64,000 nt of DNA, taken from contig OZ024744.1 in NCBI GenBank assembly GCA_964016885.1, forward strand, positions 51,026,001 to 51,090,000. The letters are read 5' to 3'. The DNA comes from Eledone cirrhosa. Taxonomy: Eukaryota. A model generated the notes under the pieces. It saw only the letters and a list, made by a program, of their open reading frames with translations. It did not search any database and had not been told where the DNA came from. Shown here piece by piece: positions 10,556-58,480 of this stretch. Each line of letters starts with the position of its first letter. Within the stretch, counting starts at the first letter, position 1. A program made the translations under genes and the position numbers.

Positions 10556-10557
10556 CT

Positions 10558-10589
<32 letters not shown>

Positions 10590-10900: not shown

Positions 10901-11195
10901 GGGGAAAAAAGAAGACGGAAGGAGTGGGAGTGACTTGTGAAAATTCTTTTTTTGTAGCCATGTTTTTTTTACGGTTTAAAATGAATATTGGGTACAAAAC
11001 CCCAATAACTGGTTATTTAACCCCGAAAGGCCAAATAACGGGCAGAAAGACCCCTCTCACGAGGAGGAGGGTGTCTTTATATACAATTGGGTTCAAGTTT
11101 TAAACAATGTTATAACGGTTAAAAATTACAATACCTTACAGAGCTGAGCCTCCGTCAACCATGGCATTCAATAATAATAATAATAATAATAATAG

Positions 11196-12220
11196 AAGTT
11201 CCATTTACTGCTGAAATGAAAAACACAGAAAAAGCAAAGCAGGTAAAAGTAACTGCAAAGAAAGAACTGCTTCGGAAACTGGCTAAGAAATGGCAAGAAA
11301 AGCCTCTGTATGGAAATTTCCCAGAAAGAGCTAACAATCCTGATGTTGACAAAACTGTAACCCATCAGTGGTTGGCATGCTCTGGACTGAAATCGGAGAC
11401 TGAAGGACTGATTATATCAGCACAAGATCAGTGTCTGCCAACAAAAAATTACCAACCCAACATAATAAAAAATGCATGCAACCCATTATGGCGTGTATGT
11501 AAAAAAACCCAGAGACCATTGATCATATAATTTCAATGTGCAGTCCTATAGCTCCAACCGAATACCTAAACAGGCACGATAGAGCTGCAGAATACATTGG
11601 ATAATGTGTAAGCATTTTGACCTGCCCCATCAAAAGAATTGGTGGGAGCATCAACCACCTCCCATACTTGAAAAAGATCACATCGCAATTTGTGGAACTT
11701 TAGCATCCAAACAGACCGAAAAATAGATGCAAATATACCTGATATAATAATGAAGGACTTTAAAAAGAGGGTATGCCTGCTAATTGATATGTCCGTTCCA
11801 ATAGACAAGAATGTATCTATAAAAACATTTGAAAAATTGAGCAAGTATAAGGACCTGGAGATAGAAATTGGAAAAAATGTGGAAATTGAGAACTAAAACA
11901 ATACCAGTGGTTGTAGGCGCTCTGGGAATGATACCTAAGGGGTCTAATGATTACATATCGCAAATCCCAGGAAACCCGCGTATAGGAGAAATACAAAATA
12001 TAGTACTAATGGGAACTGACCATATACTAAGGAAGATTCTGTCAATATAAGTACATCACAAGTCTAAACACCTAAAGATGCATGTGTGTGTATGTTCTTT
12101 CTTGAACATGGCGGACCTTGTTGTCTCTTAAGGTCACTGGTTGTGACTTGGTTGTTAATTCGTATGAACATAAAGCAAGATAAATGCAACTATAATACTA
12201 ATAATATAAAAATAATAATA
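11196..12220 (+). mobile_element. R4/Dong-like non-LTR retrotransposon 3' end (CCHC + restriction-like endonuclease)
   Basis: LKSETEGLIISAQDQ, YLNRHD, PDII..D, LIDMSVP, KLSKYKDL and PVVVGALG. Bounded on both sides by (TAA)n, the known Dong-type target. Confidence 0.85.
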
Positions 12221-12352
12221 ATGATTTCTTTATTGGCCACAAGGGCTGACATCAAGAAAAACATTACAGACGGCACAAGACGGTACGATGTGGGTTTTGT
12301 GCGTGTAAAGATTTTTATTATTTATATAAGAAAAGAAAAACAAGACATAGAA

Positions 12353-12422
<70 letters not shown>

Positions 12423-12489
12423 GTTATTCCGGGTTGAATCGGAGGTAACCACAGTAAGTAAGGTACTCAATACATTGCAGAGTATAAAA

Positions 12490-12542
12490 GAGATTCCTGG
12501 TGATTTCTAAAGAATGAAACAGTTCTAGTCCTGTAGAATCTC
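12490..12542 (+). ncRNA. Type I hammerhead motif with A6G core change
   Basis: GAGATTC | CTGGTGA | TTTC-taaa-GAAT | GAAACAG-ttctagtc-CTGTA^ | GAATCTC. The sister copy at 58511-58561 has a canonical core. Confidence 0.75.
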
Positions 12543-12555
12543 ATCTATATTAAAA

Positions 12556-12590
<35 letters not shown>

Positions 12591-12594
<4 letters not shown>

Positions 12595-15500: not shown

Positions 15501-15680
15501 TTGCTGCTGTTGTCATTTTTGTTCTCACTGTTGTTGGTGCTGGTGTTGGCGATATTGCCTGATGTGGTGTTACATTAAAAAATTGTTGCGGGAGGGACAG
15601 CGTTATTAGCCTCAAAGTTTGACTCGCTGTCGCAAGACAGCAAAGTCAAAGTTGGAGGGCGTGCCTCCACCATGTTTCTT
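12591..15680 (-). mobile_element. Tx1/L1-like LINE with ORF1 remnant and heavily deleted ORF2
   Basis: N-rich ORF1 start and CFVCEGKTHLRAL knuckle remnant, homologous to 9662-10875. ORF2 start MAVLRVGSLNVRS jumps to the linker (HFFNEKHEACIVRAK) and then to the 3' end, finishing at (TA)n. Confidence 0.82.
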
Positions 15681-16549: not shown

Positions 16550-16843
16550 CTATTCTCAGCTAAGTTACCAGGCGATGCGTGGACACAGGGAACTTATACA
16601 AAAATAATTCAGTGGATGGAAAAAAGCAAGCGTGGACTAAATTCCAAGACATTGAAAAAATCACTGCCTACTTGGTCGGTGGCATATTCAAAAGAATCAA
16701 TCACGTGACATCGAGGTTAATCAGTGAGGAGTGGGGTGTTAAAAAGACAGTAGCCGAGCCATTGCTATGAACTATAGTAGCAGCTTTGGCAAATTTTTGC
16801 TCAACAAAATAATTTGGAGATAATTATAAAGAATTAGTATATT

Positions 16844-16914
<71 letters not shown>

Positions 16915-16974
16915 AAATATAAAGTAGCAAATAAGGACGAACTTGAAAAACTGAATACATATGCCTCTTGTATA

Positions 16975-18717
16975 ATGCATGAACTACACATTGAAAATAA
17001 AACACAACCCTTCATGCCAAGGAAACCTAAGATTAATATGAAGGATCATAAAAGAAACTTTGAAAATGATTTACCAGTCAGATTAATTGCACCATCTAAA
17101 TCTGACCTTGGCAGACTTAGCAAAAATATTCTAGACAGAATAATACAACAAATTAAGAATCTACCTAATTTATCTTACTTAAAATTATGGAAAGGGACTA
17201 GTGAGGTTATCGATTGGTTTAAAGAAATTAAATATAACTATAATAAGTTTATTCAGTTGGATATTGCTAACTACTACTCATCTATCACTCCTAATCTACT
17301 GAATAAGGCACTAACTTACGCATTTAAACATACAGACCTAACTAGCAATGAAATGCACATTATATTATCGGCACGGAAAACATTAATAGAATTTAATAAC
17401 CAACTCTGGACTAGGGCAGATAGAAATAATAATTTCGACATAACTATGGGATCTTCAGACTCAGCTCAGGTAACGGACCTTGTGGGCCTATTTATAATTA
17501 ATTCTCTACATAGAAAAATACCAGGTGTAACCGGAGGCTTATATCGTGACGACATGCTTTTGCTTATAGAAAATAATAGCTGTGAACTAAATAGAAAAAG
17601 AAAACAAATTATACAATTTTTTAATTACCTTAATCTAAAAGTAGAAATAGAGAATAACCATAAAATAGTCAATTTTCTAGATGTAACACTAAATCTTAAC
17701 ACATGTCTTCATTATCCATTTCACAAACTAAATGAGAACTTAAATTATGTCAATTTTAACTCTAATCACCCCAGACCCGTTAAAAATACTATAGTGAACT
17801 CTGTACAAGAACGAATTTCAAGAATTTCATCTAATAAGAATATATTTGATGAAAAAGCGCATTATTACAACGAAGCGTTAGGTAGAGCTGGGTATAGAAA
17901 TAAAATTAAATACATCGATAATAATAATAATATAAAAACTAACCAAAATAATAACAATTTTAACTATGGTAACAATTTTAACAACTATAATAGAAAACAT
18001 TACAATAATTCCGAAAGCCGAAAAAGAAATAGAACTAGGAATATACTATGGTTCGCTCCTCCTTTCTCACTAAATATTAAAACCCCTATTGCTAAATTAT
18101 TCTTTAAAGCTCTTGACAAACGCTTCTCTAGAACACATAGATATTACTCAATTTTTAATAAACATACTATAAAATTAACTTACTCTTCCACCAAAAATTT
18201 AGCGCAAAATATTAATAGAATTAATAATAGAAATTTAAAACCTAACCAAAATACCAATAATAACCCAAGCAATATTCAATCGAATAATTGTAACTGTAGA
18301 AATAAATCCAACTGTCAGTTAAATAACAACTGCTTAGCTAAAAATGTAGTTTATATTTGTAATGTTAAAACTAATTTAAATTCATTTAATTATGTCGGTT
18401 CTACCTCCACAGAGTTTAAATCCCGCTTCAATAATCATAAAAATTCTTTTACAGATCCAAACAAAAAATCTTCAGCTTCGCTATCTAGCCTATTATGGGA
18501 CCTAAAACGAAATAATGTTGAATATTCGCTGATTTGGAATATTATTTCAAAAGCTACTCCTTTTAATTCCTCTTCAGAAAATTGCGATCTTTGTATAGAG
18601 GAAATATTCTTTATATTAAAGACCAAAAATGCCCTTAATTTAAGGAATAATTTATTCAGTTGCTGCAGACATAGATTGAACTCAACGTTTAAATATAAAT
18701 ATAAATTTAAAATGTAG
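16975..18717 (+). CDS. Penelope-like RT + GIY-YIG polyprotein, uninterrupted 580 aa, probably 5'-truncated (Hydra-like lineage)
   Basis: KDHK, RLIAPSKSDLG, FIQLDIANYYSSI, FDITMGSSDSAQ, GLYRDD, NFLDVTLNL, CNCRNKSNC, VVYICNV..YVGST and FKSRFNNH. Preceded by (TA)n. Confidence 0.92.
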   Translation: MHELHIENKTQPFMPRKPKINMKDHKRNFENDLPVRLIAPSKSDLGRLSKNILDRIIQQIKNLPNLSYLKLWKGTSEVIDWFKEIKYNYNKFIQLDIANYYSSITPNLLNKALTYAFKHTDLTSNEMHIILSARKTLIEFNNQLWTRADRNNNFDITMGSSDSAQVTDLVGLFIINSLHRKIPGVTGGLYRDDMLLLIENNSCELNRKRKQIIQFFNYLNLKVEIENNHKIVNFLDVTLNLNTCLHYPFHKLNENLNYVNFNSNHPRPVKNTIVNSVQERISRISSNKNIFDEKAHYYNEALGRAGYRNKIKYIDNNNNIKTNQNNNNFNYGNNFNNYNRKHYNNSESRKRNRTRNILWFAPPFSLNIKTPIAKLFFKALDKRFSRTHRYYSIFNKHTIKLTYSSTKNLAQNINRINNRNLKPNQNTNNNPSNIQSNNCNCRNKSNCQLNNNCLAKNVVYICNVKTNLNSFNYVGSTSTEFKSRFNNHKNSFTDPNKKSSASLSSLLWDLKRNNVEYSLIWNIISKATPFNSSSENCDLCIEEIFFILKTKNALNLRNNLFSCCRHRLNSTFKYKYKFKM

Positions 18718-18879
18718 TATAATTAATTAAGTAATTTGGTTAATATATGAAACCTGTCGATAAATCATTAGATTCCTTCACCTTTTTCATTTTTTTCATT
18801 TTCTTTGGTTAAATACTCAAGTATAAATAAATTTTCTTCCTAAATATAAATATAAATATAATAAACTATTCTAGAAAAG

Positions 18880-19260
18880 TTTATCCTTTCAATATCTTGA
18901 GTAAAATATACGTATAAATTTCTATACTAAATATATTAAACATATTATTTTAACTTAAAATATTCTATAATATTTTAAAATATTTTAATATTTTGACATT
19001 TGTAGAATTCTTTTGTTTTTAAGTTATATTGATATAATATTTTATTTAGTTTTTATTAGGTTTGTTTTTATTCTGATAGCTTCTCATAATTTTCAAAACT
19101 TTATCCTTTCAATATCTTGAATAAAATATACGTAAGATAAATTTCTATACTAAATCTATTAAACATAGTATTTTAACTTAAAATATTCTATAATATTTTA
19201 AAATATTTTAATATTTTGATATTTGTAGAATTCTTTTGCTTTTAAATTATATTGATATAA
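18880..19260. repeat. Tandem duplication of about 220 bp in the PLE 3' UTR
   Basis: tttatcctttcaatatcttga..aaaatatacgta occurs at about 18880 and 19100, followed by long matching sequence. Confidence 0.8.
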
Positions 19261-20318
19261 TTATATTTCCAAAATATAATCCTTTTGTATTTTATGTACT
19301 CAATTGTACTATGTAATATATTGATGTATACTTATCTCTATACGACTATATATGTATGTGTGTGTATTAACATACATATACATGTGTTATATGCATTTTT
19401 ATAAATATATGTCTGTCTGTATAATATGCATGAGTGACCTGTGTCTACCAATTGGGTGAAGATGCACACACATGTTTATATATGTATATGTAAGAATTGT
19501 GTGTGTACATGTACATGTTTACCCATGCAATTTGATTGCAGATATGCATAATTTAACAGCCATAAATGCATGAAAGTTAATCCTATATATATATATATAT
19601 ATACTAACATTTTTTATTTAATAACACAAGGGATGTATAACATTAATAAAAAAAAAAAAAAAAAATCATTTATGCTTTGTATGTATATATTATATGCGGG
19701 AGTAGATATAATGTGTATTTTCTGAGTGTGTGTGTATATATATATTTATGTATTTTTGCGTATACGTACGTGCTATATGATAGGTAATTTCTCTAGCAAT
19801 ATATATATTTCGTAATGTTTAAATTCCAATTTTTTTATATATTGATCTCAATTTTTAAACTAAATATCTAATCATAGTTAAACAATGATTAATTTCTCAT
19901 ATTATATATGTATATTCCATTCATAAATATTAATATTTCTAATTTTATTTATTCATTTCATCTCAATTGTTAACTTAACTTAATATGACATGACTTAAGG
20001 TTTTCGCTCTCTTCCCCTCTCTCTATCTCTATATTTCTCTCTCTTGATTTTTTCTCTCTGTCTGGTGGTTTGATATCTCTCTGTTGTTTTTCTCTGTTTT
20101 CTTTTTTTCTTTTTTCTTTCTTCTTTTTCTTTATTTATTTCTCCCTTTTTTTTTCCACTTTTCTCTCTCTCGGTTTTTCTCTCTCTCCGTCTTTTTCCTT
20201 CTCCTTAACACAACGACTTACTAAAATAAACAAATCCACTATCCTGATGTCTTCCAAAAGTAACGGTTGCATTTTGAAAGGGTACGTCAATGTTTATTTA
20301 TAAAACTGGTATATATTG

Positions 20319-20383
20319 TATTTTGTCTGATGAAGGCATACCATAATTTAACATGGTATCCTTGAAATATGTATAATAAAATA
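20319..20383 (+). ncRNA. Type I hammerhead in the putative 3' pLTR of the 16975-18717 PLE
   Basis: TATTTTGT | CTGATGA | AGGCATACCAT...ATGGTATCCTT | GAAAT-ATGT-ATA^ | ATAAAATA. Homologs at 51992-52057 and 51788-51853. Confidence 0.78.
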
Positions 20384-20659
20384 AATATGGTTTTATAAAT
20401 ATAGTTTCCATTTGTTAATATCGTATATATATATATATATGAAAATTAGAGCTAAAACTCCAATTGGAACCCTGTAACTATTAAGCTCCAAGTATAAAAA
20501 TACTGAGCCGATTAATATATAGTAAGAAACACAGTAAACCGTGTGTCTAAAATTACAAGGGTTGAAAAACCACATTTGTTTGAAATATTTAACCAAGAAG
20601 CAGACAGAATGAAAAAATAAAAATATATTATTATACAAACCGCCTCAATAACCATTATA

Positions 20660-20740
20660 TCTCTCGGACAGATTATCCCTAATCTGTTTCGCCCTGAGTC
20701 TGTTTGTAACAGATAATCCTTGGGCATCATCAGCGAGAGA
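20660..20740 (-). ncRNA. Type I hammerhead (470-bp family)
   Basis: Reverse complement of 21313-21392, with one extra base in loop II. Confidence 0.88.
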
Positions 20741-21312
20741 ATCTGATTAAATGCAACAAACACTATTTGCCAACGTTCACACAGAAAGATGAATTTGTCA
20801 CCTCGTGCGCCGCTAGTCAAACGTGGTAAGTGCGTATTGAATAGAAATAACAGTCCAACACACACAACTTAATAAGCTCAACTTGTGAGGGAGCAAGCAG
20901 AAATATATATGAAAATTAGAGCTAAAACTCCAATTGGAACCCTGTAACTATTAAGCTCCAAGTATAAAAATACTGAGCCGATTAATATATAGTAAGAAAC
21001 ACAGTAAACCGTGTGTCTAAAATTACAAGGGTTGAAAAACCACATTTGTTTGAAATATTTCTTACTATATATTAATCGGCTCAGTATTTTTATACTTGGA
21101 GCTTAATAGTTACAGGGTTCCAATTGGAGTTTTAGCTCTAATTTTCATATATATTTCTGCTCCCTCACAAGTTGAGCTTATTAAGTTGTGTGTGTTGGAC
21201 TGTTATTTCTATTCAATACGCGCTTACCACGTTTGACTAGCGGCGCACGAGGTGACAAATTCATCTTTCTGTGTGAACGTTGGCAAATAGTGTTTGTTGC
21301 ATTTAATCAGAT

Positions 21313-21392
21313 TCTCTCGCTGATGATGCCCAAGATTATCTGTTACAAACAGACTCAGGGCGAAACAGATTAGGGATAATCTGTCCGAGAGA
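21313..21392 (+). ncRNA. Type I hammerhead (470-bp family)
   Basis: TCTCTCG | CTGATGA(T) | GCCC...GGGC | GAAACAGATTA-ggga-TAATCTGTC^ | CGAGAGA. Predicted cleavage after 21385. Confidence 0.9.
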
Positions 21393-21536
21393 TATAATGG
21401 TTATTGAGGCGGTTTGTATAATAATATATTTTTATTTTATCATTCTGTCTGCTTCTTGGTTAAATATTTCAAACAAATGTGGTTTTTCAACCCTTGTAAT
21501 TTTAGATACACAGTTTACTGTGTTTCTTACTATATA

Positions 21537-24522
21537 TAAAAACAAATAACGAAACGAAATTAAATTTCGTTTCGTTTGTAACTCACTTTTGTATGACTGA
21601 CGCTTAAACAATTAAGTTAAAAATGTACATCCACATATGTATACTGAAATACTAGTATGCATATGAATACACACACGTATACATATGTAGATGTACCAAG
21701 TCTTTCACTGGTTACTTTACTGTGAGTACCCAGCTATTCTGTATGTAAACACACAGACAAACCGGTTTTTAGAGTCATACTGGTTTTTGAGGAAACACCT
21801 TTCCTCTATTCTCCAGAAAGCCAGACAAGGAATATTGAACTAGTTTCGTTGTTGTTACAACTCATCAGCAATATTTACCTATCTACCGGCCTTTCTGGAG
21901 AATCGTAAAAGCACATATCGTTATATGCTTTTTCTATGAAAATTAGTAGTGGGCAGACTAATTTGCATAGAGTGTGAGTACGTACCGGCTCAACGGAGAC
22001 GATAAAAACAAATAACGAAACGAAATTAAATTTCGTTTCGTTTGTAACTCACTTTTGTATGACTGACGCTTAAACAATTAAGTTAAAAATGTACATCCAC
22101 ATATGTATACTGAAATACTAGTATGCATATGAATACACACACGTATACATATGTAGATGTACCAAGTCTTTCACTGGTTACTTTACTGTGAGTACCCAGC
22201 TATTCTGTATGTAAACACACAGACAAACCGGTTTTTAGAGTCATACTGGTTTTTGAGGAAACACCTTTCCTCTATTCTCCAGAAAGCCAGACAAGGAATA
22301 TTGAACTAGTTTCGTTGTTGTTACAACTCATCAGCAATATTTACCTATCTACCGGCCTTTCTGGAGAATCGTAAAAGCACATATCGTTATATGCTTTTTC
22401 TATGAAAATTAGTAGTGGGCAGACTAATTTGCATAGAGTGTGAGTACGTACCGGCTCAACGGAGACGATAAAAACAAATAACGAAACGAAATTAAATTTC
22501 GTTTCGTTTGTAACTCACTTTTGTATGACTGACGCTTAAACAATTAAGTTAAAAATGTACATCCACATATGTATACTGAAATACTAGTATGCATATGAAT
22601 ACACACACGTATACATATGTAGATGTACCAAGTCTTTCACTGGTTACTTTACTGTGAGTACCCAGCTATTCTGTATGTAAACACACAGACAAACCGGTTT
22701 TTAGAGTCATACTGGTTTTTGAGGAAACACCTTTCCTCTATTCTCCAGAAAGCCAGACAAGGAATATTGAACTAGTTTCGTTGTTGTTACAACTCATCAG
22801 CAATATTTACCTATCTACCGGCCTTTCTGGAGAATCGTAAAAGCACATATCGTTATATGCTTTTTCTATGAAAATTAGTAGTGGGCAGACTAATTTGCAT
22901 AGAGTGTGAGTACGTACCGGCTCAACGGAGACGATAAAAACAAATAACGAAACGAAATTAAATTTCGTTTCGTTTGTAACTCACTTTTGTATGACTGACG
23001 CTTAAACAATTAAGTTAAAAATGTACATCCACATATGTATACTGAAATACTAGTATGCATATGAATACATATGCATACTAGTATTTCAGTATACATATGT
23101 GGATGTACATTTTTAACTTAATTGTTTAAGCGTCAGTCATACAAAAGTGAGTTACAAACGAAACGAAATTTAATTTCGTTTCGTTATTTGTTTTTATCGT
23201 CTCCGTTGAGCCGGTACGTACTCACACTCTATGCAAATTAGTCTGCCCACTACTAATTTTCATAGAAAAAGCATATAACGATATGTGCTTTTACGATTCT
23301 CCAGAAAGGCCGGTAGATAGGTAAATATTGCTGATGAGTTGTAACAACAACGAAACTAGTTCAATATTCCTTGTCTGGCTTTCTGGAGAATAGAGGAAAG
23401 GTGTTTCCTCAAAAACCAGTATGACTCTAAAAACCGGTTTGTCTGTGTGTTTACATACAGAATAGCTGGGTACTCACAGTAAAGTAACCAGTGAAAGACT
23501 TGGTACATCTACATATGTATACGTGTGTGTATTCATATGCATACTAGTATTTCAGTATACATATGTGGATGTACATTTTTAACTTAATTGTTTAAGCGTC
23601 AGTCATACAAAAGTGAGTTACAAACGAAACGAAATTTAATTTCGTTTCGTTATTTGTTTTTATCGTCTCCGTTGAGCCGGTACGTACTCACACTCTATGC
23701 AAATTAGTCTGCCCACTACTAATTTTCATAGAAAAAGCATATAACGATATGTGCTTTTACGATTCTCCAGAAAGGCCGGTAGATAGGTAAATATTGCTGA
23801 TGAGTTGTAACAACAACGAAACTAGTTCAATATTCCTTGTCTGGCTTTCTGGAGAATAGAGGAAAGGTGTTTCCTCAAAAACCAGTATGACTCTAAAAAC
23901 CGGTTTGTCTGTGTGTTTACATACAGAATAGCTGGGTACTCACAGTAAAGTAACCAGTGAAAGACTTGGTACATCTACATATGTATACGTGTGTGTATTC
24001 ATATGCATACTAGTATTTCAGTATACATATGTGGATGTACATTTTTAACTTAATTGTTTAAGCGTCAGTCATACAAAAGTGAGTTACAAACGAAACGAAA
24101 TTTAATTTCGTTTCGTTATTTGTTTTTATCGTCTCCGTTGAGCCGGTACGTACTCACACTCTATGCAAATTAGTCTGCCCACTACTAATTTTCATAGAAA
24201 AAGCATATAACGATATGTGCTTTTACGATTCTCCAGAAAGGCCGGTAGATAGGTAAATATTGCTGATGAGTTGTAACAACAACGAAACTAGTTCAATATT
24301 CCTTGTCTGGCTTTCTGGAGAATAGAGGAAAGGTGTTTCCTCAAAAACCAGTATGACTCTAAAAACCGGTTTGTCTGTGTGTTTACATACAGAATAGCTG
24401 GGTACTCACAGTAAAGTAACCAGTGAAAGACTTGGTACATCTACATATGTATACGTGTGTGTATTCATATGCATACTAGTATTTCAGTATACATATGTGG
24501 ATGTACATTTTTAACTTAATTG
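21537..24522. mobile_element. Retrozyme-like inverted tandem array, 466-bp monomer: about 3.3 copies (-) and 3.1 copies (+)
   Basis: Exact period of 466 (21543, 22009, 22475, 22941). Inversion centre at 23064-23067. Hammerheads at 21831-21875, 22297-22341 and 22763-22807 (-), and 23324-23368, 23790-23834 and 24256-24300 (+). CTTACTATATAT flanks both sides. Confidence 0.92.
23324..23368 (+). ncRNA. Minimal type I hammerhead (466-bp family; representative of 6 copies)
   Basis: AATATTG | CTGATGA | GTTGT-aaca-ACAAC | GAAAC-TA-GTT^ | CAATATT. Stem I extends by TTCTCCAGAAAG pairing with CTTTCTGGAGAA. Confidence 0.9.
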
Positions 24523-24524
24523 CT

Positions 24525-24621
<97 letters not shown>

Positions 24622-24622
<1 letters not shown>

Positions 24623-24676
24623 TCTTTTACTCTTTTACCTGTTTCAGCCATCCGGCTGAGGCCATGCTGGGGCACC
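24622..24676 (-). mobile_element. SINE 3' tail fragment
   Basis: Minus strand ggtgccccagcatggcc...gctgaaacaggtaaaagagtaaaagag resembles an octopus SINE tail (recognised from memory, not searched). Confidence 0.55.
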
Positions 24677-24763
24677 GAAACACGGGATAATTTCTCTTTG
24701 GACATTTCTACGCATTTCTTATAAATACACTTTATCCAGCAACAACACATCCCCTGTTCCTTC

Positions 24764-24857
<94 letters not shown>

Positions 24858-24859
<2 letters not shown>

Positions 24860-25697
24860 AAATTAAGATAAATAAAATGAATTTAATCTAAATCAAAATT
24901 ATGGGTGTCATGCCAGAAAGACATGCGTCATATCACCCGGAAAATAAGCTCTAAGATTCTAACGAGTAGGTCCGAGCATTTTATAATAACTAGAAATTGA
25001 TTAACATATATATAAACATGAATAATCACAGGAGATAATTTTTACAAGTGTGTAACCACACATAGCTAGGTAGGTAACTAAATAAAGTTGACTAGAACTT
25101 CAAAAATAAATACTTTATAATATGATTAATCTTCCCTGTATATATTCCATTAAAGAAATATATTTCACCAATTAATCAGATGGTAAACCACGGAAGTGGA
25201 GATTTGGATTTTCAACAAGGAAGAAATTTCCAGCCATCCGCGCTTACACTTCAAGTTCAAATCTGCAACTGGCTATTACCACGTGTAGTATTTACTATAA
25301 ATACACACATCATAGTAGCTTCGTCCCAGTGGCGTGAATAGGGTTATCGACAACTAGAAACAGCAGTCGAGTCCTTTCAACAGAGTTAGCTCTGCAATTA
25401 AGGAGCCATATTTATATATCTCTATCCAAAATTAAGATAAATTAAATGAATTTAATCTAAATCAAAATTATGGGTGTCATGCCAGAAAGACATGCGCCAT
25501 ATCACCCGGAATATAAGCTCTAAGATTCTAACGAGTAGGTCCGAGCATTTTATAACAACTAGAAATTGATTAACATATATATAAACATGAATAATCACAG
25601 GAGATAATTTTAACAAGTGTGTAACCACACATAGCTAGGTAGGTAACTTAATAAAGTTGACTAGAACTTCAAAAATAGATACCTTATAATATGATTA
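24858..25697. repeat. Tandem repeat, 569-bp unit, about 1.5 copies, between (TA)n tracts
   Basis: caaaattaagata at 24858 and 25427, with about 270 bp of near-identity. Confidence 0.9.
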
Positions 25698-25718
25698 TAT
25701 ATATATATATATATATAT

Positions 25719-28700
25719 ATACATTATGAAGAGAGAAGAAACATTTAGATATAATTAGTAATAAAATGTATCATACCTAAACTGTTCCTAAATTCCTCGA
25801 CTACGTAGTTTCGTGGCATAAACAAAAACAATATATCAAAGATATAGAGTCCTTGCGAGGTCTGCCGACTTATCAAGAGGATACCTCATTTTACTAGTCT
25901 CAAGAACGCGTCTACACGACGTGAGAAAGAATCCCAAAAGGCGGAGGGGGAGATAGTCACGCGATATAACGGTCGAGAAACAGAGCTAAGCCTCTTATAA
26001 CCACGAAAAAAATACCACGGAGGCGGAGGGGGTATTCATATCGAGGCCGTAGAAGAGGTAGTGAAGAAGGCGAGAAGTATGAGTAATGGAAGCTTTCCAG
26101 TTGTCCCCACACTTCAAAGATTGCTCGACCAGAGGGAGTTATTAATACATTTAGAAACACACAGATACACGCGGACACACACATATATACATGAATGCAT
26201 CCGCACCCAACTGTGAGTTAAGGGTGCCAACTTCACCGATGTTGCTCAATGAATGACTGGGACAGACCAATTCAGTTTGAACCAGACTGAACCAGTATCA
26301 GAGTTAAAAATACATTATGAAGAGAGAAGAAACATTTAGATATAATTAGTAATAAAATGTATCATACCTAAACTGTTCCTAAATTCCTCGACAACGTAGT
26401 TTCGTGGCATAAACAAAAACAATATATCAAAGATATAGAGTCCTTGCGAGGTCTGCCGACTTATCAAGAGGATACCTCATTTTACTAGTCTCAAGAACGC
26501 GTCTACACGACGTGAGAAAGAATCCCAAAAGGCGGAGGGGGAGATAGTCACGCGATATAACGGTCGAGAAACAGAGCTAAGCCTCTTATAACCACGAAAA
26601 AAATACCACGGAGGCGGAGGGGGTATTCATATCGAGGCCGTAGAAGAGGTAGTGAAGAAGGCGAGAAGTATGAGTAATGGAAGCTTTCCAGTTGTCCCCA
26701 CACTTCAAAGATTGCTCGACCAGAGGGAGTTATTAATACATTTAGAAACACACAGATACACGCGGACACACACATATATACATGAATGCATCCGCACCCA
26801 ACTGTGAGTTAAGGGTGCCAACTTCACCGATGTTGCTCAATGAATGACTGGGACAGACCAATTCAGTTTGAACCAGACTGAACCAGTATCAGAGTTAAAA
26901 ATACATTATGAAGAGAGAAGAAACATTTAGATATAATTAGTAATAAAATGTATCATACCTAAACTGTTCCTAAATTCCTCGACTACGTAGTTTCGTGGCA
27001 TAAACAAAAACAATATATCAAAGATATAAAGTCCTTGCAATATATCAAAGATATAGAGTCCTTGCGAGGTCTGCCGACATCGGTGAAGTTGGCACCCTTA
27101 ACTCACAGTTGGGTGCGGATGCATTCATGTATATATGTGTGTGTCCGCGTGTATCTGTGTGTTTCTAAATGTATTAATAACTCCCTCTGGTCGAGCAATC
27201 TTTGAAGTGTGGGGACAACTGGAAAGCTTCCATTACTCATACTTCTCGCCTTCTTCACTACCTCTTCTACGGCCTCGATATGAATACCCCCTCCGCCTCC
27301 GTGGTATTTTTTTCGTGGTTATAAGAGGCTTAGCTCTGTTTCTCGACCGTTATATCGCGTGACTATCTCCCCCTCCGCCTTTTGGGATTCTTTCTCACGT
27401 CGTGTAGACGCGTTCTTGAGACTAGTAAAATGAGGTATCCTCTTGATAAGTCGGCAGACCTCGCAAGGACTCTATATCTTTGATATATTGTTTTTGTTTA
27501 TGCCACGAAACTACGTAGTCGAGGAATTTAGGAACAGTTTAGGTATGATACATTTTATTACTAATTATATCTAAATGTTTCTTCTCTCTTCATAATGTAT
27601 TTTTAACTCTGATACTGGTTCAGTCTGGTTCAAACTGAATTGGTCTGTCCCAGTCATTCATTGAGCAACATCGGTGAAGTTGGTACCCTTAACTCACAGT
27701 TGGGTGCGGATGCATTCATGTATATATGTGTGTGTCCGCGTGTATCTGTGTGTTTCTAAATGTATTAATAACTCCCTCTGGTCGAGCAATCTTTGAAGTG
27801 TGGGGACAACTGGAAAGCTTCCATTACTCATACTTCTCGCCTTCTTCACTACCTCTTCTACGGCCTCGATATGAATACCCCCTCCGCCTCCGTGGTATTT
27901 TTTTCGTGGTTATAAGAGGCTTAGCTCTGTTTCTCGACCGTTATATCGCGTGACTATCTCCCCCTCCGCCTTTTGGGATTCTTTCTCACGTCGTGTAGAC
28001 GCGTTCTTGAGACTAGTAAAATGAGGTATCCTCTTGATAAGTCGGCAGACCTCGCAAGGACTCTATATCTTTGATATATTGTTTTTGTTTATGCCACGAA
28101 ACTACGTAGTCGAGGAATTTAGGAACAGTTTAGGTATGATACATTTTATTACTAATTATATCTAAATGTTTCTTCTCTCTTCATAATGTATTTTTAACTC
28201 TGATACTGGTTCAGTCTGGTTCAAACTGAATTGGTCTGTCCCAGTCATTCATTGAGCAACATCGGTGAAGTTGGCACCCTTAACTCACAGTTGGGTGCGG
28301 ATGCATTCATGTATATATGTGTGTGTCCGCGTGTATCTGTGTGTTTCTAAATGTATTAATAACTCCCTCTGGTCGAGCAATCTTTGAAGTGTGGGGACAA
28401 CTGGAAAGCTTCCATTACTCATACTTCTCGCCTTCTTCACTACCTCTTCTACGGCCTCGATATGAATACCCCCTCCGCCTCCGTGGTATTTTTTTCGTGG
28501 TTATAAGAGGCTTAGCTCTGTTTCTCGACCGTTATATCGCGTGACTATCTCCCCCTCCGCCTTTTGGGATTCTTTCTCACGTCGTGTAGACGCGTTCTTG
28601 AGACTAGTAAAATGAGGTATCCTCTTGATAAGTCGGCAGACCTCGCAAGGACTCTATATCTTTGATATATTGTTTTTTGTTTATGCCACGAAACTACGTA

Positions 28701-31310
28701 GTCGAGGAATTTAGGAACAGTTTAGGTATGATACATTTTATTACTAATTATATCTAAATGTTTCTTCTCTCTTCATAATGTATTTTTAACTCTGATACTG
28801 GTTCAGTCTGGTTCAAACTGAATTGGTCTGTCCCAGTCATTCATTGAGCAACATCGGTGAAGTTGGCACCCTTAACTCACAGTTGGGTGCGGATGCATTC
28901 ATGTATATATGTGTGTGTCCGCGTGTATCTGTGTGTTTCTAAATGTATTAATAACTCCCTCTGGTCGAGCAATCTTTGAAGTGTGGGGACAACTGGAAAG
29001 CTTCCATTACTCATACTTCTCGCCTTCTTCACTACCTCTTCTACGGCCTCGATATGAATACCCCCTCCGCCTCCGTGGTATTTTTTTCGTGGTTATAAGA
29101 GGCTTAGCTCTGTTTCTCGACCGTTATATCGCGTGACTATCTCCCCCTCCGCCTTTTGGGATTCTTTCTCACGTCGTGTAGACGCGTTCTTGAGACTAGT
29201 AAAATGAGGTATCCTCTTGATAAGTCGGCAGACCTCGCAAGGACTCTATATCTTTGATATATTGTTTTTGTTTATGCCACGAAACTACGTAGTCGAGGAA
29301 TTTAGGAACAGTTTAGGTATGATACATTTTATTACTAATTATATCTAAATGTTTCTTCTCTCTTCATAATGTATTTTTAACTCTGATACTGGTTCAGTCT
29401 GGTTCAAACTGAATTGGTCTGTCCCAGTCATTCATTGAGCAACATCGGTGAAGTTGGTACCCTTAACTCACAGTTGGGTGCGGATGCATTCATGTATATA
29501 TGTGTGTGTCCGCGTGTATCTGTGTGTTTCTAAATGTATTAATAACTCCCTCTGGTCGAGCAATCTTTGAAGTGTGGGGACAACTGGAAAGCTTCCATTA
29601 CTCATACTTCTCGCCTTCTTCACTACCTCTTCTACGGCCTCGATATGAATACCCCCTCCGCCTCCGTGGTATTTTTTTCGTGGTTATAAGAGGCTTAGCT
29701 CTGTTTCTCGACCGTTATATCGCGTGACTATCTCCCCCTCCGCCTTTTGGGATTCTTTCTCACGTCGTGTAGACGCGTTCTTGAGACTAGTAAAATGAGG
29801 TATCCTCTTGATAAGTCGGCAGACCTCGCAAGGACTCTATATCTTTGATATATTGTTTTTGTTTATGCCACGAAACTACGTAGTCGAGGAATTTAGGAAC
29901 AGTTTAGGTATGATACATTTTATTACTAATTATATCTAAATGTTTCTTCTCTCTTCATAATGTATTTTTAACTCTGATACTGGTTCAGTCTGGTTCAAAC
30001 TGAATTGGTCTGTCCCAGTCATTCATTGAGCAACATCGGTGAAGTTGGCACCCTTAACTCACAGTTGGGTGCGGATGCATTCATGTATATATGTGTGTGT
30101 CCGCGTGTATCTGTGTGTTTCTAAATGTATTAATAACTCCCTCTGGTCGAGCAATCTTTGAAGTGTGGGGACAACTGGAAAGCTTCCATTACTCATACTT
30201 CTCGCCTTCTTCACTACCTCTTCTACGGCCTCGATATGAATACCCCCTCCGCCTCCGTGGTATTTTTTTCGTGGTTATAAGAGGCTTAGCTCTGTTTCTC
30301 GACCGTTATATCGCGTGACTATCTCCCCCTCCGCCTTTTGGGATTCTTTCTCACGTCGTGTAGACGCGTTCTTGAGACTAGTAAAATGAGGTATCCTCTT
30401 GATAAGTCGGCAGACCTCGCAAGGACTCTATATCTTTGATATATTGTTTTTTGTTTATGCCACGAAACTACGTAGTCGAGGAATTTAGGAACAGTTTAGG
30501 TATGATACATTTTATTACTAATTATATCTAAATGTTTCTTCTCTCTTCATAATGTATTTTTAACTCTGATACTGGTTCAGTCTGGTTCAAACTGAATTGG
30601 TCTGTCCCAGTCATTCATTGAGCAACATCGGTGAAGTTGGCACCCTTAACTCACAGTTGGGTGCGGATGCATTCATGTATATATGTGTGTGTCCGCGTGT
30701 ATCTGTGTGTTTCTAAATGTATTAATAACTCCCTCTGGTCGAGCAATCTTTGAAGTGTGGGGACAACTGGAAAGCTTCCATTACTCATACTTCTCGCCTT
30801 CTTCACTACATCTTCTACGGCCTCGATATGAATACCCCCTCCGCCTCCGTGGTATTTTTTTCGTGGTTATAAGAGGCTTAGCTCTGTTTCTCGACCGTTA
30901 TATCGCGTGACTATCTCCCCCTCCGCCTTTTGGGATTCTTTCTCACGTCGTGTAGACGCGTTCTTGAGACTAGTAAAATGAGGTATCCTCTTGATAAGTC
31001 GGCAGACCTCGCAAGGACTCTATATCTTTGATATATTGTTTTTGTTTATGCCACGAAACTACGTAGTCGAGGAATTTAGGAACAGTTTAGGTATGATACA
31101 TTTTATTACTAATTATATCTAAATGTTTCTTCTCTCTTCATAATGTATTTTTAACTCTGATACTGGTTCAGTCTGGTTCAAACTGAATTGGTCTGTCCCA
31201 GTCATTCATTGAGCAACATCGGTGAAGTTGGCACCCTTAACTCACAGTTGGGTGCGGATGCATTCATGTATATATGTGTGTGTCCGCGTGTATCTGTGTG
31301 TTTCTAAATG

Positions 31311-31314
<4 letters not shown>
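25719..31314. mobile_element. Retrozyme-like inverted tandem array, 591-bp monomer: about 2.3 copies (-) and 7.2 copies (+)
   Basis: Period 591/592. Junction at about 27078 is preceded by a 27-bp duplication. Variant hammerhead in every unit, with TTGATAA starting at 27443, 28034, 28625, 29217, 29808, 30399 and 30991 (+), and full motifs at 25794-25881 and 26385-26472 (-). (TA)n on both sides. Confidence 0.93.
27438..27525 (+). ncRNA. Type I hammerhead with U3-A8 variant core (representative of 9 copies)
   Basis: TCCTC | TTGATAA | GTcGGCA...TGCCAC | GAAAC-TACGTA-GTC^ | GAGGA. Predicted cleavage after 27520. Confidence 0.85.
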
Positions 31315-31349
<35 letters not shown>

Positions 31350-33029: not shown

Positions 33030-33445
33030 TGTTATATATATATATATGAATGTATATACAGTGTATTTTGCAATACACTGTATGCTTAATTAAAAACATT
33101 TTGAAGATCTTACGCTATTGTTTTAAAGCAGTGACTATGTCACTTACTTCTTTTTTCAACAAACAAAGGGAGATAAGCTGACACAGTTCCTGATTATTAC
33201 TGGAATTCTACAAGAATCCAACATTCATAATTTTCAACAAACAAGAGGAGTGCTAAGCTCTGAGGAATACCAACAGTATGAAACAGAGATCTGTCAGCTT
33301 TTCTCCCTTTGTTTGTTGAAAAAAAGATGAAGTAAGTGACATAGTCACTACTTTAAAACAATAGCGTATGGTCTTCAAAATGCTTTTAATTAAGCATACA
33401 GTGTATTGCAAAATACACTGTATATACATTCATATATATATATCG
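33030..33445. repeat. Inverted repeat with arms of about 150 bp (pLTR-like fold-back) containing a hammerhead
   Basis: 33030-33183 mirrors 33293-33445. Confidence 0.85.
33255..33300 (+). ncRNA. Compact type I hammerhead
   Basis: AAGCT | CTGAGGA | ATAC-caaca-GTAT | GAAACAGA-ga-TCTGTC^ | AGCTT. Confidence 0.9.
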
Positions 33446-51627: not shown

Positions 51628-51748
51628 GATATGATTATATATGTATATACATATATGCAAAAGTTTTATTTAAAATTGTTGGGTTACAACAAGTAAATAT
51701 TTTATAACTGATATAAAGCACTCGACAAGTTTTTGGAGTAGATATACG

Positions 51749-52096
51749 ATATTAAACAAATGGAAACTATATTTATAAAACCATATTTATTTCATTATAC
51801 ATATTTCAGGGATACCATATTAAAAATATGGCATGCCTTCGTCAGATAAAATACAATATATAACCAGTTTTATAAATAATTTTGACGTACCATAAGTATA
51901 GCGACCATTAGGGTAGGAAGCTGGCTTGGTACCTTAATGGTCGCTATATTTATGGTACGTCAAAATTATTTATAAAACTGGTTATATATTGTATTTTATC
52001 TGACGAAGGCATGCCATATTTTTAATATGGTATCCCTGAAATATGTATAATGAAATAAATATGGTTTTATAAATATAGTTTCCATTTGTTTAATAT
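51749..52096. repeat. Palindrome of two solo pLTRs; hammerheads at 51788-51853 (-) and 51992-52057 (+)
   Basis: Arms of about 160 bp. Motif TATTTTAT | CTGACGA | AGGCATGCCATATT-ttt-AATATGGTATCCCT | GAAAT-ATGT-ATA^ | ATGAAATA, homologous to 20280-20420. Confidence 0.87.
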
Positions 52097-52138
52097 TGTA
52101 TATACATATATATTTACACACACACATATATATATATA

Positions 52139-54231: not shown

Positions 54232-55138
54232 TATATACAATTGAATATATGAGAGGGATGAACACCGATACAAGTATACATGTGTTCGAATTGCAAATGA
54301 CCATGTTAGCTAAGAAGAGCACAGGAATGGTGGCTTTCACTTAATAATTCTTGCGAAACAGATTTTAGATCTGTCCGGATATCAAAGGCTGTTGCCCGAT
54401 ATAGGTTTGTTATTTTTTTTGATTTATTATTTTAAATCGCGACAGGCAAACCATATTGTTTTAAATTAGTATTTTTTCAACTTAACTAACATGGTCAGTT
54501 GCAATTCGAACACATGTATACTTGTATCGGTGTTCATCCCTCTCATATATTCAATTGTATTACACGGCTCGGAAAGATTCCCTTCCTTGAGCTATTTAAT
54601 TGTAAAAGACTATTTTGAGTTTCTAACTGAATCTATGATATTCTCGGCTCCATACGTAGAGCTAACTTTAGTCTCATAAAACCGGCTGCTATTTTTAGCG
54701 GCATGAGAATGAGACGCGCTAGGCGCTGCGACATGTGCTTTTATATCAAGACATAGTTCAGTCTTCTTAGATCTTTTGAAGTGAAAGGTACAAATTTCCT
54801 GGATACCCGCAGAAGAGCACAGGAATAGTGGCTTACACTTAATAATTCTTGCGAAACAGATTTTAGATCTGTCCGGGTATCAAAGGCAGTTGCCCAATAT
54901 AGGTTTGTTATTTTTATTGATTTATTACTTTAAATCGAGACAGGCAAACCATATTGTTTTAATTTAGTATTTTTTCAACCTAGCTAACTTGGTCATTTGC
55001 AATTCGAACACATGTATACTTGTATCGGTGTTCATCCCTATCATATATTCAATTGTATTACACGGCTCGGAAAGATTCCCTTCTTTGAGGTATTTAATTG
55101 TAAAAGACTATTTTGAGTTTCTAACTGAATCTATGATA
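54232..55138. mobile_element. Retrozyme-like element, 498-bp monomer: inverted 80-bp piece plus about 1.65 copies (+)
   Basis: The GAAACAGA motif starts at 54355 and 54853. Segment 54232-54310 is the reverse complement of part of the unit. TA-flanked. Confidence 0.82.
54802..54881 (+). ncRNA. Type I hammerhead with CAGAAGA (U4A) core
   Basis: GATACCCG | CAGAAGA | GCAcAGGAAT...ATTCTTGC | GAAACAGAT-tttag-ATCTGTC^ | CGGGTATC. Confidence 0.8.
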
Positions 55139-55144
55139 TATATA

Positions 55145-58100
55145 TATATAGTAATAATAATAAATTTGAAGACTTAAATCCAAAGAGGGCTCGATAAGGA
55201 TAAATATATATCAAATATATAAGAACCGTAGAGAAAATATTTATTAAAATAACAGATTAAAGTTTAAGCAAAGAATCGCTGCTTTCACTCTTAACTGGAT
55301 CTTCTGAAACTAAAACGCAGAAGTAAATAATTCGAGAAACATTGCAGCCGAAGGAAAACAGGAAGACGATACTTTGGTTCGTGAAGACGTTCCCTGGCAA
55401 TGAACGAAAAAAAGCGAAGATAAAACGTCGTTATGTGGAGCGTTTAGAACAAATACACGCAAAGACAAAACCACGTTTATGGTATAAATGAAGTCGTAGA
55501 CTAATATTCTATTTAGGAAACCGAATGATATCTCGGCTTCTGAGTTAAGAATAATTGTTTCTACTTTTGGCACAAGGCCAGCAATCACCCAGTACATTAC
55601 TGGTACTTTATTTTATCGACGAATAATGTAAATAAATTAGTAGAACGATAATGACAGAGGTTATTAAAATCAAATAATTAAATATATACATACAAGCATC
55701 TATAAACGTACATACACAGGCATACGCAAAACACACACCATGCATGCATAAACATGCACGTACACATACATAAATCCGCGCGACACCTGTATCTGCACAC
55801 ATACGAACGTATACATCAAATACACATAACATTTTTTATATATATGTGTGTGTGTATGTGTGTATATACATATAATTATATAAACGTATATAAATATACA
55901 CACATAAATACGTATATAACGCACACGCACACATACATACAGGTAAAAACAATATGTTCACCAAACGTTTCGCCACAACCCGTCTATTCGGCTAATTAAC
56001 CTTACGAAGTCTGATTTAGGTAGACTTAGTAAAAAGGATTTTAGATAGAATTATACCTGAAATTAGAAGCTTGGCCCCTCTTGCACTGAAATAATTCTTT
56101 CGTGGCGATTGATTGGTTCAATGGCATATGCAACAAGGAACATTGCTTTTATCCAATTCGACATCAATAACTACTACTCCTCCATCACTTTACCACTTCT
56201 TCTTAGAGCTATCAATTTCGCTAAAACGCTCACGGTGGTTAGGGATTTCGAAGTTGATGTCATCCTCAACGCCCATAAGTCAGTGATTAATTTCGACGAC
56301 TCTATTTGGATAAAAAATCTAATAGTACCCCATTCGACATGAGTATAGGCGCCAGCGATTCTGAGGAGGTTACAGATCTTAACGACATTTTCCTTCTTTT
56401 CTCTATCAAGAAAGAATTCCCAATGTGGGTGGTGGTTTTTACCGCGATGACGGTGCGGTCCACGCGCTTGCGACAGGTTAAGAAAAGAACTCACAGCCTT
56501 CTTTAAAGGCTTCAACCTCTCCATACAGGTTGAGGCCAACCTCTCGGTCGTTAATTACCTCAACGTTACCCTCAATTAGTCGAATGGCTTGCATTATCCG
56601 TATAGAAAGCCAAATGATACGCTTAATTACATAAGTAAGCATTCTAACCATCCTGCCAGCATAACCAAGAACCTGGTAAGAAACGTTTCTTTGCGGCTTT
56701 CCCGTCTATCTACAAACGAGCATATTTTCACCGACCATTCCACATATTACAATGAAGCTCTTGCTCGTAGCGGATGTGTTGATAAGGTAGCATATACTAA
56801 GTATGAGCATAGACCAAGGAAAAATAGATCCCGACACATTATATGGTATAACCCACCATATAATATGGAGGCGACCACACCATTAGCTAAGATCTTTCTC
56901 TCCCTTATTAAGAAGCATTTCCCCTCAGCACATAAATATAATAACATTTTTAATAGAAATACCATTAAAATACCTTACACTACGGCTCCTAACCTTGCTC
57001 ATAACATCACTGTTTCAAATTTAGCTAAATTACCTAGCCGTAGGAACACGTGAAACCCTGTAGCTAGCACTAACTGTAATTGTAGGAATCGAGCTGACTG
57101 ATCTCTATCCGGGAAATGTCTCTCCAGTAACATTGTCTACAAATGTAAGGTCGAAGCACCCACGTCCCGTAGGGCTTACATAGGGTTAACCGCCAATAGA
57201 TTCAAGCAGCGTCTTTACATGCACACCCATTCTTTTCTTAACCCTTTTAAGAAGGAATATGACGTCACTTTCAGCTTATATCTGGAGTCTAAAAGACAAC
57301 CACATCCAATATAGGTTCCAGTGGGACATCCTAGCTAGAGCTAGATCGTATAACAGAAATAAAAGACCTTGTGATCTTTGCGCCGCTGAAGCCCTGGAAA
57401 TACTCTACGCCAATGATCACATCTTAAAAAAAAAAAATCTGAGGCAATTTCGGCTTGTAAACACAAATTGCATAAAACCTTCCTGTATTACAGCCCCACT
57501 TTATGCCCTAACGGATAGTACGAACAATACGCGGATAATTTACGTCTCGATGTGATAGCTAAGTATATTTTTTGCTTATACCATTACTTATTTGTATAGG
57601 TAAGTATACCTTACTCGTATGTTTTGTGAATGTACTTATACTTTCTCCTACGTATATATGCTTGTATTTGTTATAAGTGTATATATTATATTATATATAC
57701 TGGTATATGTGTATATGGTTATGTGTATATGTGTATTTTGTGTTTGTGTGCGTATGCGTGTATGCGTGTTTGCATGTACAATGTGTTTTGGTTGATGTAT
57801 GCTTGGTGAACATATGTGTTTTTACCTGTAGGTATCTGTGCGCGTGCGTTATATGCGTATTTATATGTGTATATTTATATACGTTTACATAATTATATGT
57901 ATACACACACACTCACACACACACACATCAATTGTTTTTATGTTTATTTGGTGTACCACAACAGCCACCGGACACGCCGACACCTAGTTGCACCGGACTG
58001 AACTCCTCACCCAGTTCGGGTGTTATGGACCTGCAGACCACCTTGGCAGCGAGTCTCCGGAAGACATTTCCCACGGCAATGGGGCGTATGCCACCCTCTT

Positions 58101-58480
58101 TCTTCCTGAGAGCGGTGAGGCTCTCAGGAAGAAAGAGGCCTCGGGCGTGAGGGTCCAGGGTGTCATGGATGAGCCTATATAGGAAGCCGAGAATCATTCG
58201 GTTTCCTATATAGAATATTAGTTTACGACTTCATTTATACCATAAACGTGGTTTTTCTTTGCGTGTATTTGTTCTCATCGATCCACATAACGACGTTTCA
58301 TCTTCGCTTTTTTCTGTTCATTACCAGGGAACGTCTTCATGAACCAAAGTATCGTCTTCCTGTTTTCCTTCGGTTGCAACGTTTTTCGAAATATTTACTT
58401 CTGCGTTCACAGATTGATTTTTTTAGTTTCAGAAGATCCCGTTAAGGGTGAAAGCAGCGATTCTTTGCTGTTATTTTAAT
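55145..58480 (+). mobile_element. Decayed PLE, same family as 33930-37208, with an inverted 3' UTR/pLTR at its 5' side
   Basis: Broken ORFs at 55980-57500 match 35200-36680. Segment 55145-55970 mirrors 57780-58480. A SINE tail is inserted at 55553-55620. Confidence 0.88.
57950..58185 (-). mobile_element. CRE-clade LINE RT fragment inserted in the PLE 3' UTR
   Basis: LTALRKKEGGIRPIAVGNVFRRLAAKV...QLGVGVSGG. Confidence 0.8.

Follow-up and report, generated by a model that had tools for sequence, protein, structure and literature searches.

A window of 64,000 nucleotides from Eledone cirrhosa (contig OZ024744.1, positions 51,026,001 to 51,090,000 of the forward strand; all coordinates below refer to this window) contains arrays of four non-coding repeat families, named A to D, each unit of which carries a hammerhead ribozyme motif. 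Judging from their sequences, A to D are likely to be independent, non-autonomous retroelements of the retrozyme type that borrow the reverse transcriptase (RT) and GIY-YIG protein of a Penelope-like element (PLE), most likely one of the (TA)n-targeting Hydra clade. Retrozymes, their circles, their link to Penelope and the tail of the inserts are already known, and the four elements add new members to an established class. What appears to be new is the near-strict pairing of two start sites, S1 and S2, with the two strands of the target.

In each family, the outer ends of the inserts fall at two positions, which are counted in nucleotides after the cleavage site of the hammerhead: 152 (S1) and 234 (S2) in A, approximately 230 and 302 in B, 80 and 245 in C, and 185 and 266 in D. 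The spacing between S1 and S2, which corresponds to the tail, is 82, 72, 165 and 81 nt, respectively. For classification, 163 loci were used. They comprise 106 top full-length matches (for B, every one of the 36 distinct loci outside the window; for C, 23 of 39 loci; for A, 20 of 39; and for D, 24 with one duplicate left out) and the first 57 end-pattern matches on contig C1. Loci L139, L186, L190 and L209 were omitted as duplicates, and L023 and L024 were merged. Two arms were found in 107 of the 163 inserts. Both ends are canonical in 84 two-arm loci; 83 of these possess one S1 and one S2 end, and a single one uses the same site twice (p = 4e-24 compared to a 50:50 expectation). The remaining loci have one non-canonical end (13), a far end that is off the locus (10) or a single arm (47), or are unresolved (7) or complex (2). 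In the end-anchored subset, one end of each kind was found in 28 of 28 inserts. Note that array A of the window and locus L068, which were filed otherwise by the script, proved to have one end of each kind on inspection. The position lists of contig C1, which partly overlap with the 163 loci and may contain errors because they were copied by hand, yielded 22 S1-S2 pairs for B, 12 for C, and one true same-site pair (L217). A candidate B pair with two S2 ends from these lists turned out to be two inserts. The initial annotation of this DNA had stated that array ends do not coincide with the cleavage sites, as expected for rolling reverse transcription of a circle. The ends do avoid the cleavage site; they are not permuted, as the 3' ends lie at two fixed sites and only the 5' stops are scattered.

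In B and C, S1 and S2 are not located at the best TA runs and better TA runs stay unused, so TA microhomology does not select the sites in these two families. All eight start sites are rich in U (40-73% over the last 15 nt), and several follow shortly after a predicted hairpin, an observation made without a control. By eye, the single-arm B inserts L027, L161 and L163 carry inverted S1 micro-arms of 12-16 nt at their 5' side.

The lengths of the two arms are informative because a fold-back copy must fall within the first arm. Loci selected for full length are unable to test arm nesting; among 27 length-unbiased inserts, 21 are compatible with nesting and in six neither arm contains the other. 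The arms of L147 (95 and 95 nt) and L166 (65 and 58 nt) are even disjoint. The six non-nested inserts therefore suggest that both arms were copied from RNA. The longer arm ends at S1 in 30 and at S2 in 51 of 81 inserts. The 54 head-to-head junctions analysed show an overlap of 1-4 nt (30), are blunt (6) or contain inserted letters (18), and no junction common to different loci was seen besides duplicated loci. Among 82 inserts, 10 were informative with respect to target-site duplications, and the five cleanest of these have duplications of 12-13 nt. Twin priming from both sides of a staggered cut is highly probable, given the end pattern, the non-nested arms and the duplications.

The families are not confined to a single locus. 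Genome searches gave 1,418 (A), 844 (B), 761 (C) and 3,523 (D) candidates, of which 39-40 per monomer were scored. Exact patterns consisting of an end plus TA matched 1,900 times for S1 of C, 1,934 times for S2 of B and 681 times for one variant of S2 of C, with no match for the reversed-pattern controls; the S1 end of B gave 532 forward matches (its reverse count double-counts). These copies support the annotated presence of several non-coding, dispersed, hammerhead-bearing families of the retrozyme type. By anatomy A to D appear retrozyme-like and are putative members of this class. Calling their monomers large is less apt, because families of 51-972 bp have been reported (bioRxiv 10.64898/2026.07.22.740005) and the size is not unusual.

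Within the window, the annotated unit lengths of 470 (A), 466 (B), 591 (C) and 498 bp (D) were borne out, and all four arrays are flanked by TA. The families are mutually unrelated; the best pairwise matches span just 11-28 nt with E at least 0.24. In agreement with the reported lack of a recognisable protein, the region 20433-31314 contains no stop-to-stop frame of at least 150 amino acids, and a blastx comparison of the monomers with five PLE proteins gave nothing at E<1. Other parts of the description had to be revised. The arrays are not simply head-to-tail, as each consists of two arms joined head-to-head: the left arm carries the ribozyme on the minus strand and the right arm on the plus strand, so that the 3' sides of the RNA point outward into (TA)n. 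Near-invariance applies to B and C (99.7-99.9%) but not to A and D, whose copies are about 95% alike. Nor does C lie next to B, since (TA)n, a 146-bp repeat and a 569-bp tandem element E stand between them. Because other loci hold other mixtures of the same families, the supposed cluster is better described as a nested pile-up of dispersed families in a preferred (TA)n target than as a system.

Family A sits in the (TA)n flank of PLE1, an element described below. Its left arm (20433..21060, minus strand, 1.34 units) has its outer end at S2, 234 nt after the cleavage site, with the hammerhead core at 20733 and N17 at 20667; its right arm (21058..21537, plus strand, 1.02 units) ends at S1, 152 nt after the site. 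The two hammerheads are oppositely oriented, and there is no same-strand pair at this locus. The insertion of family B in the end of A is marked by a target-site duplication of 13 nt, whose left copy (21526..21538) includes microhomology and whose right copy (24523..24535) continues into (TA)n. The B arms comprise 3.29 units at 21536..23069 (minus strand, S2 at 302) and 3.12 units at 23068..24522 (plus strand, S1 at 229), and form a 2.9-kb palindrome that is 99.86% identical. Family C follows with 2.3 units at 25719..27078 (minus strand, S1 at 80, with a short duplication near the junction) and 7.17 units at 27077..31315 (plus strand, S2 at 247); in the latter arm two private variants return at a 3-unit period. 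Family D consists of an 80-nt left arm (54235..54314, minus strand, S1 at 185) and a right arm of 1.66 units (54313..55139, plus strand, S2 at 266), and contains one complete hammerhead.

A structure-based scan confirmed that each unit has a single type I hammerhead motif; N17 lies at 21385 (A), 23361 (B), 27520 (C) and 54873 (D). Among 500 shuffles per monomer, the scan gave 1 (A), 0 (B), 1 (C) and 1 (D) matches; in this test it missed the rotated D unit, and the D copy of the window at 54810 passes. Of the four families only B scored among the Rfam matches listed (150 of 326), with HH9 at 38.6 bits, which is below the gathering score of 52, and Rfam gave no ribozyme match on C. Rfam microRNA matches in the window correspond to the palindrome centre and to (TA)n and were rejected. 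The motif of A (21313..21392, plus strand) has a CUGAUGA core, an extra U before stem II, a 7-bp stem III beyond an A-U pair, and GUC at 21385. In the first plus-strand copy of B (23324..23368), a CUGAUGA core is combined with a short palindromic stem III of the dimer type and GUU at 23361. The first plus-strand copy of C (27438..27525) has a U3-A8 core (UUGAUAA), a long stem II, a palindromic stem III and GUC at 27520, and D has the core CAGAAGA at 54810 and GUC at 54873, also on the plus strand. An extra nucleotide, a palindromic stem III and U3-A8 are all known from PLE hammerheads (PMC4209133). Among the pattern matches, the cores are conserved in 23 of 24 (A, CTGATGA), 140 of 147 (B), 141 of 143 (C, TTGATAA) and 18 of 23 cases (D, CAGAAGA). 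Across two subfamilies of B there are two compensatory pairs and 97.5% of the cells are paired, which gives weak support as the seven sequences are related. The younger of these B subfamilies has GUU and the older one (L168-L190) GUC; amplification continued despite this change. Consecutive same-strand units with complete hammerheads are found in the window for B and C, and for A and D at other loci only (e.g. L086, L092 and L208). Folded as circles, the monomers of A to D are stable, with z values of -4.5 to -11.6 (20 shuffles).

Candidates for the proposed partner in the window are two PLE families. PLE1 (16813..20420, plus strand) is a 5'-truncated element of the autonomous type with the motifs of the Hydra clade, its own hammerhead (core 20327) and an S1 end. 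Furthermore, a solo inverted pair of its pseudo-long terminal repeats (pseudo-LTRs) with one S2 and one S1 end is located approximately at 51655..52100. A copy of PLE2, a second family of the Hydra type, with an inverted S2 arm and an S1 end, lies directly after D (approximately 55150..58480, plus strand). In the genome, 112,432 candidate segments of PLE1 and 47,636 of PLE2 were counted. The Hydra clade is defined by RWK-like, DKT and CxCX5C motifs, a C-terminal GIY-YIG domain, a hammerhead and a (TA)n target (PMC8557442, section 11). Both families carry RWR, DKT and CxCx5C and, by these motifs, appear to match this clade; Pfam assigned no family to their open reading frames (ORFs). Each possesses its own hammerhead-like motif and two ends, which lie about 50 and 140 nt (PLE1) and about 27 and 118 nt (PLE2) after the site. 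By eye, inverted pairs have one end of each kind in 7 of 8 (PLE1) and 7 of 7 cases (PLE2). The inverted arm, the tail, the (TA)n target and the duplication of 12-13 nt are thus common to A to D and to the PLEs, in support of the annotated mobilisation by Penelope-like elements. On this evidence there is little doubt that A to D would work like a non-autonomous PLE with PLE machinery, and the mobiliser probably belongs to the Hydra clade. Family D and PLE2 (L222-L224; in the window near 34050 and 55270) both have a CAGAAGA core in otherwise dissimilar folds; this core is possibly a natural active variant or a clue to the partner. Relatives of PLE1 were sought among viral contigs and none was found. 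A PLE of another type occupies 46107-49118, where an open frame of 1,003 amino acids matches RVT_1 weakly and, by the motif of its CX2-5CxxC linker, is Neptune-like.

The insertion may be pictured as follows. The protein would bind an RNA longer than one unit, or a circle that results from hammerhead cleavage and ligation. Its endonuclease would cut both strands of (TA)n with a stagger of about 12-13 nt, which is the length of the observed duplications. Both 3'-OH ends would then prime reverse transcription of the RNA, with S1 as the start for one of them and S2, 72-165 nt away, for the other, as recorded by the outer ends. Each RT passes the cleavage junction for a variable distance of up to 15 units, and the ends of the two cDNAs become linked head-to-head, in many cases via 1-4 nt of microhomology, after which the product would be filled in. 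Single-arm inserts could be due to the failure of one primer. A more specific version, which we put forward tentatively, is that a dimeric Penelope-like protein grips a single hammerhead-made RNA circle at S1 and S2; its subunits would prime from opposite strands of a staggered (TA)n break, both RTs would roll round this one circle, and the cDNAs would be joined. If this were true, the model would explain why endonuclease-containing (EN+) PLEs have tandem units, an inverted copy and a tail on one side only, and PLEs of the Hydra type would be the mobilisers of these retrozymes.

A number of observations weigh against this picture. There are the 13 loci of 163 with one non-canonical end and the same-site pairs L056, L217 and maybe also L200, and the PLE1 pair L110 has two S1 ends. 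Both sites of A coincide with the best TA runs, and one site of D is among the best. The haplotypes of A arms are uninformative, as they agree in 2 of 5 loci compared to 8 of 20 cross-locus pairs. Two of the ribozymes are off consensus, B by its GUU and D by an A at position 4. No sequence link connects A to D to any particular PLE family, and the Neptune-like ORF is also present in the window. For the PLE protein from Anolis, in vitro experiments found no difference between top and bottom start sites and no reads ending at the cleavage site, and hammerhead cleavage was dispensable (PMC11167929). Among Xenopus retrozyme dimers, just one of nine was cleaved (bioRxiv 10.64898/2026.07.22.740005). 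Finally, mixed units were found in 8 of 26 B loci and also in L021, L023 and L057, and periodicities of three or four units occur in window C, L023/L024 and L218; multimer templates or later DNA duplication therefore also seem to build arrays.

These last points bear on the template. The rival that survives best assumes twin priming on an uncleaved, linear read-through multimer transcribed from long source arrays, with hammerheads that are passengers or weakly active and arrays that grow later by unequal exchange; this reading can do without a circle. We regard it as a serious explanation, albeit a somewhat improbable one. It agrees with the mixed units and higher-order periods, and with the finding that unprocessed RNA was the main substrate in the same in vitro study, which did not require hammerhead cleavage (PMC11167929). 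In the inserts, the cleavage junction is spanned with unchanged length in 28 of 28 cases for A and 152 of 152 for C. For B, 126 of 145 spans match; in 18 others a subfamily deletion lies about 10 nt from the site, and one lacks a base beside it. For D, loop III is shortened in 8 of 19 spans. At the cleavage site, A, C and D show no excess of RT stops. A slight excess in B (14 of 106 compared to 8.2 expected, p = 0.03) was post hoc and confined to the widest of three windows, and was dismissed; by eye, no enrichment was seen at S1 and S2 either. It follows that cleaved linear monomers would not be the usual template unless jumps between them are exact, whereas a linear multimer predicts exact junctions and unenriched stops equally well. 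Against the linear multimer, copying would only shorten arrays, yet many distinct B haplotypes exist, and each stays homogeneous along inserts of several units: at diagnostic sites, 18 of 26 B loci show no mixture of units, and L218, with 15.6 and 4.5 units in its arms, has one haplotype throughout both and mostly private changes. Such inserts require a monomer bottleneck followed by re-expansion. The retained hammerhead fold with its two compensatory pairs between B subfamilies also speaks, weakly, against mere passengers. A circular monomer, proposed earlier as a PLE template (PMC4209133), is slightly favoured as the usual template on these grounds, and the stable folding of the monomers as circles counts in its favour too. 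Contigs of four runs of unspecified type cover 21062-22001 with a 466-nt go-back joint, which tandem DNA would also give. Two further features of the arrays were noted: the 19-unit B arm of L023/L024 (contig C1, 375.63-375.64 Mb) contains four diverged unit types with a period of 4 and then 3, and 18 of 84 C arms stop at unit positions of approximately 355-413 near C-rich tracts, a possible RT pause site.

If there were only a single priming event, the inverted arm could be a DNA copy generated by fold-back or self-priming, and endonuclease trimming would remove one tail, as in models of the type discussed in PMC3846280 and PMC8557442. The two arms of B inserts do have a common haplotype at 23 of 27 loci, compared to 110 of 702 cross-locus pairs; near-perfect fold-back junctions exist in window B, L154, L158 and L182; and the 21 nested-compatible inserts fit as well. 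The six inserts in which neither arm lies within the other, the disjoint ones among them, contradict fold-back as the general mechanism. Moreover, the tail-less arm is the longer one in 30 of 81 inserts, and the arms of L021 carry different unit variants. Fold-back is therefore improbable. The register of unit variants between arms was also tried as a test of fold-back and abandoned, as window C and L080 fit neither register.

It is more doubtful still that each monomer is the pseudo-LTR of an unsampled autonomous PLE family. Of the 57 retrozyme families of Xenopus, 24 have matches among known transposable elements, nearly all of them to PLE termini (bioRxiv 10.64898/2026.07.22.740005), and the ends and the target of A to D are as in PLEs. 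The comparison of A to D with the termini and proteins of PLE1 (30 loci), of PLE2 (3 loci) and of window copies of two other families, to which it was restricted, revealed no similarity. Furthermore, arms that exceed one unit continue into another copy of the same monomer, and at 60 end-anchored loci no upstream PLE protein match was contiguous with an arm. Neither PLE1 nor PLE2, the two autonomous families examined, thus has A to D as its pseudo-LTRs; an ancestry from an extinct pseudo-LTR is possible. An origin as ordinary satellite DNA or as inverted sequencing or assembly chimeras, which the near-perfect palindrome of window B and the DNA-level duplications of units might suggest, is refuted by thousands of dispersed fixed-site ends, target-site duplications, asymmetric arms, arm-specific mutations in older copies and elements nested in one another, and is extremely unlikely.

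Several other elements lie in the window. Element E, which the initial annotation had overlooked, occupies 24858..25697 with about 1.5 copies of its 569-bp unit and is flanked by TA. Copies that are 89% identical and a relative that is 70% identical exist, with L086 and L058 (1528-1995) among the loci; E contains a conserved block near the unit end and is probably a minus-strand element that has two ends. Neither Rfam nor a strict or a relaxed scan found a ribozyme in E. L086 also shows a direct fusion of an A arm to E sequence. An inverted element at 33059-33420 (core 33260) contains a type I hammerhead motif with CTGAGGA and GTC at 33295 and has relatives at other loci. The same CTGAGGA motif is found beside D at 53630-54170, in a sequence related to D (75% over 149 nt). 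A short palindromic, TA-flanked element at 1504-1687 and 52217-52406 is very frequent in the fetched loci, and about three copies of a 158-bp TA-flanked piece, 100% identical and accompanied by long (TA)n, occupy 52450-53628, which may reflect recent duplication or assembly stutter. The 146-bp repeat at 24622-24766 stands between two (TA)n runs and resembles a common octopod interspersed repeat. By eye, 6054-15574 contains several diverged copies of frame fragments (RT, endonuclease, gag-like) of other non-LTR retrotransposons.

The two-ended inserts recall L1 twin priming, where a single RNA is primed by two 3' ends of the target, which gives rise to an inverted 5' segment and a target-site duplication. 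In L1 the second primer starts at variable internal sites and the arms barely overlap; in A to D both sites are fixed and both arms are able to span many units. The metazoan non-LTR retrozymes of coral, mussel and axolotl are closer relatives in anatomy (PMC7229834; bioRxiv 10.64898/2026.07.22.740005): like A to D, they are non-coding tandem units of less than 50% GC with one type I hammerhead each, highly self-paired, have target-site duplications of more than 4 bp and coexist with PLEs, by which mobilisation has been proposed. In the parts of these papers covered, the arrays are head-to-tail, and head-to-head arms, paired fixed 3' ends and (TA)n targeting are not reported. Circles and cleavage of those retrozymes have been demonstrated experimentally, whereas in A to D they are predicted features. 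According to PMC7761336, animal retrozymes lack any motif from which their mobiliser could be recognised. The insertion signature of A to D provides evidence for the retrozyme-Penelope link that is independent of the sequence similarity described in bioRxiv 10.64898/2026.07.22.740005.

EN+ PLEs of the Hydra clade share with A to D the insertion into (TA)n, canonical hammerheads, partial tandems, an inverted 5' copy and an often one-ended tail (PMC8557442, section 11). In contrast to these PLEs, A to D have no ORF, and their tails measure 72-165 nt instead of 30-40 bp (PMC8557442). For PLEs, an inverted copy and a tail at one side are described in PMC8557442, PMC2377424 and PMC3846280, the last of which favours self-priming. 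The tail is called 'often' one-sided or 'optional' there (PMC8557442), whereas one end of each kind is a near-strict rule in A to D. Non-autonomous Chlamys elements (MRC1) are also PLE derivatives with multicopy head-to-tail insertions; unlike A to D, their 3' end generally resembles the autonomous partner, and canonical hammerheads are mostly absent (PMC8557442). The making of tandem and inverted PLE inserts and of the tail is described as undefined (PMC8557442), and the pairing of the two ends is a clue to the integration of this poorly understood class of transposons. A rule of one site per strand, or an application of the tail signature to retrozymes, was not found in the literature on Penelope twin priming, on both-strand or dimer mechanisms and on cephalopods; PLE papers of 2004-2006, a 2017 paper on small hammerheads and supplements are outside this coverage, and a prior statement may exist.

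The closest biochemical parallel is the Poseidon element PAc, whose protein is predicted to be a dimer (PMC11167929). As suggested for A to D, it uses two internal start sites that define a tail in vitro, and both strands of an AT-rich target are cut and extended. The start sites of PAc lie in the start of its ORF and show no strand preference (PMC11167929), whereas the genomic record of A to D implies a different site for each strand. Thousands of young, near-identical, short non-coding inserts record this reaction with mapped start sites, and the fixed positions (152/234, 230/302, 80/245 and 185/266), one per strand, are exact predictions for an in vitro test.

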